64,000 nucleotides of DNA from an uncultured Verrucomicrobiae bacterium. GTDB taxonomy: Bacteria; Verrucomicrobiota; Verrucomicrobiia; Palsa-1439. The notes beneath the pieces are model-generated. The model was not told the DNA's origin. It saw only the letters and a program-made list of their open reading frames with translations, and ran no database searches. Each line of letters begins with the position of its first letter. The first letter of the stretch is position 1. The stretch covers positions 256,001-320,000 of the forward strand of contig CAWEWF010000004.1 of the NCBI GenBank assembly GCA_963812605.1, written 5' to 3'. Below, one piece after another: positions 43,828-51,488 of this stretch. A program made the position numbers and the translations under genes.

Positions 43828-43880
43828 ATGAACACCATACGCTGCGCACTAACTGGTTTCGGTAGTTTCCTAACTTGGAG
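43828..43880 (+). CDS. Detached 5' end (first 17 codons) of the RCC1-repeat gene, cut off by IS110-1
   Basis: ATG at 43828 reads MNTIRCALTGFGSFLTW and joins in frame at the AG core to 45083 (RATLRRG...). Confidence 0.7.
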
Positions 43881-43891
43881 CAACTGTCTTT

Positions 43892-44832
<941 letters not shown>

Positions 44833-44839
44833 GGTTAGA

Positions 44840-45060
44840 CTCCTCCTTGCAATGCGAGCCTGGTGGTGGCGCGGATGGGCGCGACCGCCGCTCTGGCAAC
44901 TGTTCGAGCGTACCGACAGGCAACGCGGATGGATCCAGCTCCAAACGGACAGGTCTGAACCGAACCGAGGGCCACGACGATCACTTCCGCGCGCCCTTGG
45001 GGGGCATGCCCCCCAAGGGCCATCCTGTCGCTCCCACACCGGTGGGAAACCAAGCCAGAG
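44840..45060 (-). ncRNA. Predicted bridge RNA of IS110-1 (ends approximate)
   Basis: In 5'-3' order on minus: left target guide CGTGGCCCT (44976-44968), right target guide TTGGAG (44944-44939), left donor guide ACAGTTGC (44903-44896), right donor guide TGCAAG (44851-44846, one G-T wobble). Confidence 0.8.
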
Positions 45061-45082
45061 AGTACCAAAAATTCTAGATACA

Positions 45083-45146
45083 AGGGCCACGCTCCGTCGT
45101 GGCCGCATTGAGCGCGCAACGGACGCAACAGAGCGCGTCCCTCCAA
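45083..45146. repeat. TGGAG-family REP doublet split by IS110-1
   Basis: (TTGG)AGGGCCACGCTCCGTCGTGGCC ... GGACGCAACAGAGCGCGTCCCTCCAA. Confidence 0.8.
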
Positions 45147-48100: not shown

Positions 48101-49166
48101 TACCAACTCCTCGCTGCAGGTGGATGGGTTTTCGGGTGGAGCGTTTATGATCAACGGCTCACCAGGAATCGCGCCGTCTGTGACCCTTTCCAGCGGCTCG
48201 ATCATTGCCACCAACGTGAGCACGTACGTGGGTTACACGAACAATGGTGCCATGACAGTTGCCGGCGGGACGGTATCACTGCGAGATCTGCATGTAGGCT
48301 ATAACGCCGGGTCTTCCGGTGGGCTAACGATCTTGGGCGGTACGAATCAGTTCGCTTCTTTTGACATTGGTTTTGCTGCGGGCGCTGGCGGCTCGGTCAA
48401 CGTCACCGGCGGGCAACTGGCGGTGACCAATGGCGCGACGGTTGTGGGACGGCTGGGTTCCGCTCAAATGACCGTGTCCAACGGCACCCTAACCGTCAGT
48501 TCGCTCGTCGTGACCAACAACATCAATGGTTCAGTGATCGACACCAACCTGTTCACGTTGAGCGCTGGAATGGTCAACAGCGCGGGCGCGGCCGTCACCA
48601 ATGCCTCGCTGTTCCAGGTCGGCGACGGCGCGGATGCGGCCACGTATCACCTGCTCGGCGGTGTGCATTCCTTTGCCAATAACCTGGAAATTCGCAACAA
48701 CGCCACGCTCAGCGGCTGCGGCACCATCAATGGCAACGTGGCGGTGGATGTCGGCGGCACGGTGTCGGCTGACTGCGGTGGCACGCTCACGTTCACGGGC
48801 ATCGTCACCAACAACGGAACGATCACGGCGATTGGTAATACAACATTGGGCTTTCTCGGCAACGTGTTCAACACCGGCACCATCGTCGCCACCAATGGCA
48901 GCGCTCAATTTCTCGGGGGCGTCACCGGCAGCGGCACAATCTTGACCAACTCTATCGTGACCGCGCAGGACATTGGCCTCCGTATATATGATGGAACCAG
49001 CAACATCACGATCGCAGCCGAAGTTGGTACACTGACCTCGGCACTTCGCATAGCCAAGGGCGGAACGAATTACGGCGTCATTTTAGTGGACACAAACTCA
49101 GCGAACGCGTCCCGGATCCGCATCCGAACGTCCGCCGGAATCAAATCATTGGAGAAGCTGCCGTGA
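45083..49166 (+). CDS. Large secreted RCC1-repeat (7-blade beta-propeller) plus beta-helix protein; 5' end interrupted by IS110-1; frameshift near 46630
   Basis: Hydrophobic signal core ending AVRA; seven repeats of SLFVKSDGSLWAMGxNxxGxLGDGTTT; passenger-like repeats continue in ORF 46584-49166. Confidence 0.85.
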
Positions 49167-49204
49167 TCAGGAGGGATATGAAAACAAGCGACATTTTTCT
49201 CTTT

Positions 49205-49233
49205 CTGTCATTCCGAGCTTGTCGAGGAATCTC
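49205..49233. repeat. Short palindromic repeat of a further type
   Basis: TGTCATTCCGAGCTTGTCGAGGAATCTC; resembles dispersed bacterial palindromic repeats, but only one copy is in this window. Confidence 0.45.
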
Positions 49234-49257
49234 AGTCGTGCCGGGAGGAATGAGAGG

Positions 49258-49342
49258 ATGAAAAGGGGTGCTTCTGTAGCGGCGCTCTATGAGCGCCGAG
49301 GGTTCACGCAATGGATACGGACGGCGGTCATAGACCGCCGCT
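49258..49342 (+). CDS. Detached 5' end of a secreted-protein gene, containing a GTAG REP doublet and cut off by IS110-2
   Basis: ATG at 49258 after a GGAGG-rich site reads MKRGASVAALYERRGFTQWIRTAVIDRR and joins in frame at the CT core to 50595 (YSFCVIAIFG...). REP arms: GTAGCGGCGCTCTATGAGCGCCG and CGGCGGTCATAGACCGCCGCT(AC). Confidence 0.72.
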
Positions 49343-49359
49343 TGTATCTTGCCCGATAT

Positions 49360-49595
49360 GGTTCCTTATTGTAGCCCCGTAGGGGAACCGACCATGGTGG
49401 ACAAGCCGGGGAAAGGTGAATCTGTGACCGCCGCCAGGCCCACGAGCCTGAGCTGTAGATTCGATCCCTTTCCCCGTGGTCGGCTCAGGCCGAACGGTAT
49501 CGGAGGTCCTCCGAACGCCTTCGGAGTGAACCTGTATGCACAAGCCCGGCCACGCCAACCGATCCGTCCACCGCCCACACTCAACCATAAGGAGA
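49360..49595 (+). ncRNA. Predicted bridge RNA of IS110-2 (ends approximate)
   Basis: Left target guide GACCGCCGC (49426-49434), right target guide AGCTGTAG (49451-49458), left donor guide ACGGTATC (49494-49501), right donor guide ACAAG (49540-49544); the target loop is closed by GAAT/ATTC and contains a CAGGC/GCCTG hairpin. Confidence 0.85.
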
Positions 49596-49600
49596 CTGCC

Positions 49601-50578
49601 ATGACAAGTTATCACCCACTGGGCCTGGACATCGCCAAACGCACCGTCGACGCGGCGTTGTTGCTAGACAAGGGCCGCTATCGCCATCATCAATTCACCA
49701 ATTCGCCGACCGGTTTCACCGCACTGGCCGCTTGGCTGCGCCGACATGCCACCGGCCCCGTTCACGCCGGCTTGGAAGCCACCGGCAGTTATGGCAACGC
49801 GCTGGCGCTATTCCTGCACCAGCAAGGCACGCCTGTGAGCGTCATCAACCCGACGCGGATCCATGCCTTTGCCCAGAGCGAATTGTCGCGTAATAAGACC
49901 GATCCCCTGGATGCCGCGCTCATCGCCCGCTTCGTGGCCACCCAGCAACCGCCACCGTGGACACCCCCACCGCTGGAACAACGCCAACTCCAAAGCCTGG
50001 TGCGTCGGATCGAGGCGCTCCAAGCCATGCGCCAGCAAGAACGCAACCGATTGGATCTGGAAGCCGACGACAGTCTGGTGGCCGATTCCTTGCGCCAGCA
50101 CCTGGCTTATCTGGACGCACAACTGCGCGGCCTCCAACAACGTCTGCGCCAACACCTCCGAGCGCATCCGCCGTTACAACACCAAAACGATCTGTTGCAG
50201 ACCATCCCGGGCATTGGGGAAACCACGGCGCTCAAACTGTTGGCCGAAATGCCCGGTCTGGCCCAGTGGTCCAGCGCCCGGCAAGTCGTGGCCTATGCGG
50301 GACTCAATCCGCAGCAGCGCACCTCGGGCAGTTCGGTGCGCGGGCGCAGCCATCTGAGCAAGATCGGCAATGCACGCCTGCGCCGTGCCCTCTACCTGCC
50401 GGCCGTGGTGGCGATGCGTTACAACCCACTGCTCAAAGCGTTTGCCCAGCGATTACGGGAACGCAACAAACCCCCGATGGTCATCGTCGGCGCCGTCATG
50501 CGCAAACTGTTGCACCAAGCCTATGGCGTCCTCAAACACGCCACCCCTTTCAATCCCAACCACGCAACGACCCATTGA
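49601..50578 (+). CDS. IS110 DEDD recombinase, intact
   Basis: LGLDIAK, GLEATG, NKTDPLDA, IPGIG, YAGLNPQQRTSGSS and GAVMRKL motifs; AAGGAG ribosome-binding site. Confidence 0.96.
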   Translation: MTSYHPLGLDIAKRTVDAALLLDKGRYRHHQFTNSPTGFTALAAWLRRHATGPVHAGLEATGSYGNALALFLHQQGTPVSVINPTRIHAFAQSELSRNKTDPLDAALIARFVATQQPPPWTPPPLEQRQLQSLVRRIEALQAMRQQERNRLDLEADDSLVADSLRQHLAYLDAQLRGLQQRLRQHLRAHPPLQHQNDLLQTIPGIGETTALKLLAEMPGLAQWSSARQVVAYAGLNPQQRTSGSSVRGRSHLSKIGNARLRRALYLPAVVAMRYNPLLKAFAQRLRERNKPPMVIVGAVMRKLLHQAYGVLKHATPFNPNHATTH

Positions 50579-50593
50579 CAACCAAGACGGTAT

Positions 50594-51488
50594 CTACAGC
50601 TTCTGCGTGATTGCGATCTTTGGGATCAGTATCCGCTGCTTATCCACCTTTGCCGCCAGCACCGTCACCACCAGCAGCCTTGACGGCGGCGGACTGCACG
50701 CGACCAGCGCTAATTACTCGATGGATAGTAGCGTCGGCGACATCGGCGGGATTTCCAGCGGCGGGAACATCTCGACCCTGCCCGGCTCCGTCGGTCAACT
50801 CACCGAGATCGTCAGTATCAGCGTCACCAGCACACCCTGGCATCGTCAACGAAGACGCGACCAGCCAGCTCAGCGCTACCGCCTCCTTCGATGACAACAG
50901 CGTGTCCATCCTCTCGGGCAGCGACGTTGCATGGGCCAGCGCGGTCTACCCACTGGCCTCGATCGACAGCAACGGCTTGGCAACGGCGGCGTCCGTGTAT
51001 GCCACGACCAATGGCGTATTCAGCGGTTTCTACCTGGGCCTCTCCAGCACCGGCCTCGTGGCCGTGATCGACAGCAATCCCGACAACTACGGCAGCTACG
51101 CCGGCGATGGCATACCGGACAGTTGGCAGGTGCAATATTTCGGCACGAACAATCCCAAAGCCGCGCCGGGCATTGACGCGGATGGCACCGGAAACAGAAC
51201 AATCTCTTCAAGTACACCGCCGGCCTCGACCCAACTAACCCCACCTCAATCTTCGTATTGAAAATCGCCAGCGTCACCGGCCAGCCGACGCAGAAGAACC
51301 TGATCTTCAACCCCATCGCCGGCGGACGGACGTATATCATCGAAGCCAGAACGAATCTGCTCAGCGGCAGTTACGCCGCGCTCGCCAGCGCCAGCGGTCC
51401 GGTCACCAACGTCAACCAGGTCACCGTAACCGATCTAAGCGCCACGCAGACCTCGAAGTTCTACCGCGTCCACGTTTCGCTGCCGTAA
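50594..51488 (+). CDS. Secreted protein with Ig-like domain, Ca-binding-type DGIPDSWQ motif and FYRV C-terminal domain; interrupted by IS110-2; frameshifts near 50840 and 51195
   Basis: Pieces in three frames: SLDGGG...SANYS; TSQLSATASFDD...GDGIPDSWQVQYFG; GRTYIIEARTNL...FYRVHVSLP. Confidence 0.75.

Follow-up and report, generated by a model that had tools for sequence, protein, structure and literature searches.

A stretch of 64,000 nucleotides from the genome of an uncultured Verrucomicrobiae bacterium (GenBank assembly GCA_963812605.1, contig CAWEWF010000004.1, positions 256,001 to 320,000; C4:256001-320000 in our numbering, henceforth the window) carries at positions 49343-50595 an intact insertion sequence (IS) of the IS110 family, IS110 group, and we read it, with a probability of about 0.9, as a bridge recombinase system of the IS621 type. 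The host genome amounts to 4.17 Mb in 15 contigs, with 58% G+C. A natural bridge system of this type had been proposed by an earlier reading of the window made from its letters alone (the sequence-only reading), and every point of that proposal that can be computed supports it: the protein domains, the ends, the core dinucleotide, the repetitive extragenic palindromic (REP) target, the covariation of the RNA and the guides. We observed the anatomy of the element, the conservation of its catalytic residues, covariation in its RNA and a correspondence of guides and flanks that extends from this copy to a second genomic copy and to relatives. By analogy with IS621, the element would also be transcribed, form a circle, catalyze recombination and move in the present-day host.

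The boundaries of the element can be read directly. On the left, the flank ...CGGCGGTCATAGACCGCCG (49322-49340) is followed by the core CT (49341-49342) and by the element start TGTATCTTGCCC. On the right, ...ACGGTAT (50587-50593) is followed by CT (50594-50595), so that the element ends in ACGGTATCT, and then by the flank ACAGCT (50596-50601). The same core CT is found at both junctions (49341-49342 and 50594-50595), and by convention we count the left CT as target and the right CT as element. Excision of 49343-50595 in silico yields GACCGCCG-CT-ACAG, the restored REP arm that the sequence-only reading had described, and this 14-mer occurs uninterrupted at eight free sites elsewhere in the genome, compared with 0.07 expected from base composition. 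Since the sole long open reading frame (ORF) with homologues spans 49601-50578, the non-coding left end measures 258 nucleotides and the right end 17 nucleotides, a layout with a long left and a short right end that matches the IS110-group pattern. The features concerned are:

49343-50595, plus strand: IS110-group insertion sequence of 1,253 bp, junctions read from the sequence
49322-49342, plus strand: target REP hairpin CGGCGGTCATAGACCGCCG, its 3' arm being the left target (positions 1-7 = 49334-49340), followed by the core CT at 49341-49342
49589-49594, plus strand: ribosome-binding site AAGGAG, 6 nucleotides upstream of the ATG
49601-50578, plus strand: recombinase gene of 325 residues, an open frame, identified by ORF, Pfam and structure-chain alignment
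50587-50595, plus strand: left donor ACGGTAT and core CT (right end of the element)
50596-50601, plus strand: right target ACAGCT

The recombinase matches PF01548 (DEDD_Tnp_IS110) at 1.2e-28 and PF02371 (Transposase_20) at 1.2e-27 in Pfam. When compared with solved structures, it matched only the transposases of ISCro4 (9t56) and IS621 (8wt6), at E values of about 1e-70 over residues 4-320, and its identity to the IS621 protein is about 42% (133/317, counted by hand from the alignment). Residues D10, E59, D101, D104 and S242-G243 align with D11, E60, D102, D105 and S241-G242 of IS621, once an offset is applied for the two additional N-terminal residues of the deposited IS621 chain (D13-T14 of the chain are D11-T12 of the paper). 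Mutation of D11, E60, D102, D105 or S241 is reported to abolish recombination by IS621 (PMC11208158). With both Pfam domains and all five catalytic residues in place, the gene is predicted to encode the intact DEDD plus serine recombinase that had been claimed for it. A Pfam search of four neighbouring ORFs gave no matches.

The sequence-only reading had described four guide-like segments in the left end, and all four were recovered at the positions given:

49426-49434, plus strand: left target guide (LTG) GACCGCCGC, eight left-target bases and the core C, equal to 49333-49341
49451-49458, plus strand: right target guide (RTG) AGCUGUAG, the core and six right-target bases
49494-49501, plus strand: left donor guide (LDG) ACGGUAUC, seven left-donor bases and the core C
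49536-49544, plus strand: right donor guide (RDG) AU[GC]ACAAG, with discontiguous pairing to CTTGTAT (49341-49347)

At the DNA level, the RTG segment AGCTGTAG (49451-49458) is the reverse complement of 50594-50601, the LDG segment ACGGTATC (49494-49501) is identical to 50587-50594, and ACAAG (49540-49544) is the reverse complement of 49341-49345. The fourth segment had been given as ACAAG; its position held, and the RDG turned out to be longer, AU-[GC]-ACAAG (49536-49544), and discontiguous as in IS621. Both left guides read as top strand and would pair with the bottom strand, while both right guides are complementary to the top strand, with the core included. LTG and LDG match the first core base alone, the RNA base that follows being C or G, not U; on the LTG side this is due to a C in place of U directly after the guide.

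To gauge chance expectation, we shuffled the left end 5,000 times with its dinucleotides preserved. Matches at least as long as those observed arose in 89 shuffles for the 9-mer of the left flank, in 130 for the 8-mer of the right flank and in 214 for the 8-mer of the right end, and no shuffle reached all four matches together. By itself ACAAG is not above chance, as 1,929 of the 5,000 shuffles contained a 6-nucleotide antisense match to the left end; the support for ACAAG comes from position and homology.

Comparative folding of the left end gave an RNA with a 5' hairpin and two modules, each built of stems and an internal loop:

49363-49385, plus strand: 5' stem-loop of the bridge RNA (helix 1, with covariation)
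49407-49476, plus strand: target-binding loop module, with a basal stem (49407-49422 with 49463-49476) and a distal hairpin (49435-49450)
49481-49561, plus strand: donor-binding loop module, with an outer stem (49481-49483/49559-49561), an inner stem (49488-49493/49546-49551) and a distal hairpin (49504-49533)
49397-49403, plus strand: 5' strand of a closing helix around both loops, paired with 49565-49571, near clade only
49565-49571, plus strand: 3' strand of the closing helix, pairing with 49397-49403

RNAalifold predicted 61 pairs for 12 near relatives (proteins at least 65% identical), 14 of them with compensatory changes, and placed LTG and RTG in unpaired internal-loop positions. In the structure of 51 pairs named above, 95.3% of the cells are paired in these relatives, compared with 33-51% when the partners are slid, and 14 pairs are changed on both sides, compared with 1-4 in the slid controls; none of 500 shuffles scored as high. 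The wider set of 21 relatives, down to about 42% protein identity, again has the guides in loops, and 21 of its 28 consensus pairs are compensatory. The target guides, which the sequence-only reading had expected in internal loops rather than in stems, are therefore unpaired in both sets of relatives. We conclude that a left-end RNA with two stem/internal-loop modules is supported by covariation. The closing helix has seven pairs in the near clade, three of them compensatory, and is absent from the consensus of the wider 21-sequence set; it would extend the RNA some 20 nucleotides past the donor loop.

Across the genome, CTACA follows the 3' arm of at least 80 REP hairpins, whose five main subtypes by the seven left-target bases are TTCGCGG (40), AGCGCCG (10), ACCGCCG (8), GGCGCGG (7) and AGCGCGG (7). 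One further REP adjoins the occupied target:

49274-49298, minus strand: neighbouring unoccupied REP, inverted, CGGCGCTCATAGAGCGCCG-CTACAG, one mismatch from the LTG

Other genomes of the genus and order also carry the inverted REP pair (49274-49342), and a segment upstream of the REPs (49205-49240) recurs at 87-100% identity at many places in the genome and in relatives from the genus and order.

A second copy of the element, at C8:246885-248135, is 87% identical to the window copy in nucleotides and 90% in amino acids. Its LTG is AAGCGCGGC and its left flank AAGCGCGG-CT, compared with GACCGCCGC and GACCGCCG-CT for the window copy. The left ends of the two copies differ at 18 positions, of which three fall within the 9-nucleotide LTG, and all three covary with the flank, each copy matching its own REP subtype. 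ACCGCCG thus appears, from the sequence, to be the subtype to which the window copy was guided, and AGCGCGG that of the second copy. The RTG is identical in both copies, and the right flank of the second copy, CT-ACAACCGG, matches the 8-nucleotide guide through CTACA only. The expectation of the sequence-only reading that further genomic copies lie at sites matching their guides holds for the left guide of the second copy and, on the right, no further than CTACA.

These comparisons raise the tentative possibility, which we hold to be somewhat doubtful, that the clade carries a variant of the bridge RNA, in which the closing helix joins both modules in one fold and the left guides read the first core base alone. 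The two copies would then illustrate shifts between REP subtypes, in which the element is retargeted by point mutations of the left guide and the right guide trails behind.

We extended the comparison of guides and flanks to relatives, using 4 loci from species genomes, 30 from metagenomes and the 2 genomic copies (36 in total), 26 of which have a recognisable left boundary. Guide columns were read from an alignment of left ends anchored on the window copy, and a shift of one base was allowed for own and foreign pairings alike. L038 was excluded from the guide tests owing to its ambiguous left boundary, as were L046 and L047, duplicates of L042 and L044, and L042 was excluded from the right-guide and handshake counts, its donor loop being deleted. 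On average, 6.24 of 7 LTG positions agreed with the left flank of the same element (n=25), compared with 3.34 for 594 foreign pairings. The 22 unique guides together scored 135 of 154, the best permutation scored 96, and none of 20,000 permutations reached the observed sum. The RTG matched its own right flank at 4.17 of 5 positions (n=18), compared with 2.74 for foreign pairings, and the 15 unique guides summed to 63 of 75, again reached by none of 20,000 permutations. In L021 and L022 an identical RNA is found at two different sites, and its guide is matched by both. Guides missed in L031, L033 and L042 (5/7 on the left) and in L032 (2/5 on the right). The LTG of L040 scores 1/7 although the guide GCAAGACT does match the L040 flank, a low score explained by a register that is off by two. 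By a strict rule, 13 of 24 relatives have the 3' arm of a hairpin as their left target, compared with 2.2% at random positions.

Two of the loci have unusual left ends. L042/L046, a single metagenome sequence, keeps the target loop and has lost the whole donor loop, leaving a left end of 193-196 nucleotides, and its right flank mismatches the RTG. At L038:1700-1760, a right end resembling that of a second IS family adjoins the start CTTGTATCTTC, repeated in tandem before the element proper, an arrangement that may be a nested or a tandem insertion.

Relatives at E <= 1e-60 were found in 2 of 400 sampled genomes of the phylum. The two nearest relatives among species genomes are metagenome-assembled genomes (MAGs) of Verrucomicrobiae and Verrucomicrobiota, and the host is therefore probably verrucomicrobial. 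The Verrucomicrobiota host that had been thought probable from the letters of the window is in this way corroborated, indirectly, through these two relatives.

In the text of the IS621 papers, the two bases 3' of each right guide are described as pairing with positions 7 and 6 in the other DNA once strands have been exchanged, and such handshake pairing with the cognate DNA as blocking exchange. The corresponding bases of the window copy are:

49459-49460, plus strand: target-loop handshake guide AU, able to pair with T and A at donor positions 7 and 6
49545-49546, plus strand: donor-loop handshake guide CC, of which C49545 pairs with target G7

The target-loop AU matches donor T7 and A6 in all 20 relatives scored and matches its own target in none of 25. 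In the donor loop, 23 of 24 relatives have a first base that pairs with target position 7 (G7-C in 11, C7-G in 11 and A7-U in one), and the second base pairs in 3 of 24, or in 11 of 24 when wobble is counted. The handshake guides thus pair with the non-cognate and not with the cognate DNA, in the donor loop of the window copy by the first base only.

The ends of the element also hold the two halves of a candidate promoter:

50575-50580, plus strand: -35 hexamer TTGACA, overlapping the stop codon
49345-49350, plus strand: -10-like hexamer TATCTT, which would complete a promoter on the circle junction only

On the circle, TTGACA and TATCTT would be spaced by 17 nucleotides (15 from the right end, plus TG), and TTGAC keeps this constant position in 24 of the 26 right ends compared among relatives. 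A scan of the integrated region for sigma-70-like sites found none by the rule of the scan. The same arrangement, with the -35 in the right end, is reported for IS621 in the text of its papers, consistent with a promoter that is split across the circle junction at the level of sequence. The REP hairpin together with the T-rich start of the element (49322-49352) scores as a site resembling an intrinsic terminator, and it could shield the element from read-through.

From these parts we propose the following cycle. The element would excise as a circle in which, by homology with IS621, right and left ends are joined at one CT, and this joining would put TTGACA 17 nucleotides from TATCTT to give a complete promoter. 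The junction promoter would drive an RNA of about 200 nucleotides from the left end, folding into the 5' hairpin and the two stem/internal-loop modules. In the second module, ACGGUAUC and AU..ACAAG would pair with the joined ends of the element itself. A tetramer of the DEDD/serine recombinase would then cut after CT in both DNAs and exchange strands, aided by the two-base handshake guides beside the right guides, and the element would insert without duplication into REPs of the subtype ...ACCGCCG-CT-ACA.

Signs of activity were sought in the assembled contigs of four sequencing runs. A DNA contig of run X2 covers 49327-50599 with one difference and continues into other sequence, and a DNA contig of run X1 covers 49214-50598 without differences in the element and then diverges. 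Either additional insertions after CTACA or CTACAG or misjoins at a repeat may explain these contigs, and we take them as a weak hint. Run X17, a soil RNA library, yielded a contig of 213 nucleotides over 49341-49551 (four differences, two gaps), a span reaching from the left end to where the donor loop closes; it too is a weak hint. No RNA contig covered the gene, and nothing follows from that gap. The best DNA contigs do not count as independent support, since they may come from the source of the assembly.

Several observations weigh against the bridge reading or against parts of it. The relatives are not independent of one another, and the handshake covariation amounts to about three independent events, since the groups follow phylogeny. 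Folded by itself, the sequence reaches a minimum energy only modestly better than that of shuffles (z = -2.41), in a fold where some guide bases are paired. RNAalifold pairs GUAU of the LDG with part of the RDG; these pairs never vary, so covariation cannot judge them, and we left them out of the named structure because they arise from the GTATCT repeat at both ends of the element. A search of 49000-50900 against Rfam 15 at E values up to 10 returned four weak, unrelated families and no relevant match. The LTG side has C opposite the second core base where IS621 has U. C49546 is a private change, since T occupies this position in the second copy, in every relative and in the X3 and X17 contigs; the C faces target C6, with which it does not pair, and it breaks a pair of the donor-loop inner stem that is A-U or G-U in 11 of 12 near relatives. 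The contigs do not reveal where an RNA begins and ends, and that of the RNA library (X17) may derive from DNA. No joint of an empty site or a circle was seen in the contigs of the four runs, and no orthologous empty site was found among 20 relatives, which gave only repeats and parts of paralogous genes. Finally, the genome holds one copy of the window sequence type despite eight perfect free targets.

Part of this evidence could be explained if the element were a bridge system by descent whose copy in the window is now immobile, a fixed and slowly decaying resident with guides that record a past insertion. No recent duplication is evident, given that the window sequence type is present once and the second copy is only 87% identical, and the eight unused targets, the stem pair broken by the private C49546 and the want of empty-site or circle joints among the contigs point the same way. 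On the other hand, the ORF is intact with all catalytic residues, and so are the split promoter, the two loops and every guide. Contigs of other runs carry the element at 99-100% identity beside other right flanks, although misjoins at repeats could account for them. On balance, we regard an immobile copy as unlikely.

A second explanation would make the left-end RNA a leader or an antisense regulator of the transposase, and the flank matches carried REP-derived sequence or chance. Small RNAs were once proposed to modulate expression of the ISPpu9 recombinase, REP-like sequence is abundant in the genome, and the single guide matches are moderately rare in shuffles (89, 130 and 214 of 5,000), with ACAAG not above chance. 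The joint occurrence of all four matches (0 of 5,000 shuffles) argues against regulation, as do the covariation of guides with flanks in 22 unique guides and the two genomic copies, the position of the guides in loops bounded by covarying stems, and handshake positions that behave as those of IS621 do; we therefore hold this explanation to be very improbable. Membership of the IS1111 group, which is marked by long subterminal inverted repeats and by a right end that carries the seekRNA or bridge RNA, is scarcely credible: the two Pfam domains would be the same, but the structured RNA lies in a left end of 258 nucleotides, the right end of 17 nucleotides is not the long RNA-bearing one of that group, and the closest solved relatives, IS621 and ISCro4, belong to the IS110 group. 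By contrast, all features of the IS110 group that can be computed were found in the window element, namely both domains, the ends, the core, the two-loop RNA, four guides, the handshake and the promoter sequence.

The window also contains a second, unrelated IS110-family element (about 43869-45144, minus strand), which shares 38% amino acid identity with the element described here. Its ORF is broken into two pieces with one TGA, and it is 98% identical to three intact genomic copies (L005, L006 and L007). It has the left end CT-TGTATCTAG and the right end GACAGTTG-CT, and it is located after a different hairpin, GGCCACGACGGAGCGTGGCC.

The element at 49343-50595 is a further, well-documented case of a natural bridge recombinase; it comes from a soil bacterium, and its protein is about 42% identical to that of IS621. 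Its two genomic copies form a retargeted pair, with the same donor loop and different LTGs, each suited to its own REP subtype, which makes them a ready test of programmability. As a further orthologue with a long RTG, it could also be of use for tool development.

How does the element compare with known systems? The RNA of IS621, from Escherichia coli, was compared through the text of the published papers (Durrant et al. 2024, Hiraizumi et al. 2024), and the likenesses and differences of the RNA that follow are limited to what that text describes. Both systems have a DEDD plus serine recombinase of about 325 residues with the five catalytic residues, a CT core, a REP target, and a long left and short right end. 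The order within the RNA is the same (5' hairpin, target loop, donor loop), with left guides that resemble the top strand and right guides that are antisense. The LDG has 8 nucleotides ending in the core C, and the RDG has 9 nucleotides that pair discontiguously with 7; in the RDG of IS621, A157-U158 are followed by C162-G165, with two bases flipped out (PMC11208160, PMC11208158). Agreement extends to the AU handshake guide and to donor bases 6-14 (ATCTTGTAT). Of these donor bases, which cover positions 6-14, the papers name A6, T7, C8-T9, T10 and T12 for IS621, and G11, A13 and T14 were deduced from the guide bases; all of them agree with the window element, for which the sequence-only reading had put the difference from the IS621 donor at one base.

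The differences lie in the recombinase (identity of about 42%), in the target (ATCAGGC-CT-AC in IS621 and ACCGCCG-CT-ACAG here), in the length of the RTG match (8 nucleotides here and 4 in IS621), in the LTG base opposite the second core base (C here and U in IS621) and in RDG position 5, which is A here, in a canonical pair with T12, and G in IS621. A possible additional closing helix beyond the donor loop and a host that is probably verrucomicrobial also set the window element apart. When the element and its Janthinobacterium relative L015 were searched against E. coli genomes by blastn, no match was found, and a text search of the literature for CTTGTAT gave no matches.

ISCro4 is reportedly a bridge recombinase used for genome rearrangement. 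At the protein level, its transposase (PDB 9t56) aligns with the window protein at the same score as that of IS621 (E 1.2e-70) and over the same span, and is no closer. ISPpu9 of Pseudomonas putida, like ISPpu10, is said to be an IS110-family element that inserts into REP or intergenic repeats. For ISPpu10, also from P. putida, a GC-rich stem-loop 5' of the target is described as an added determinant of specificity (bioRxiv 10.64898/2026.03.19.712850). As far as that description goes, the left target of the window element, being the 3' arm of a GC-rich hairpin, recalls the stem-loop requirement of ISPpu10.

A study of 2024 states in its text that bridge RNAs are predicted in 85.7% of IS110-group elements and reports concordance of guides and targets at scale. 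The supplementary tables of the 2024 papers may already list close relatives of the window element, and since those papers had shown covariation of guides and targets over thousands of elements, the understanding of the system is unchanged by it. Set beside these systems, the element at 49343-50595 is a clear but ordinary further example of the system described in 2024.

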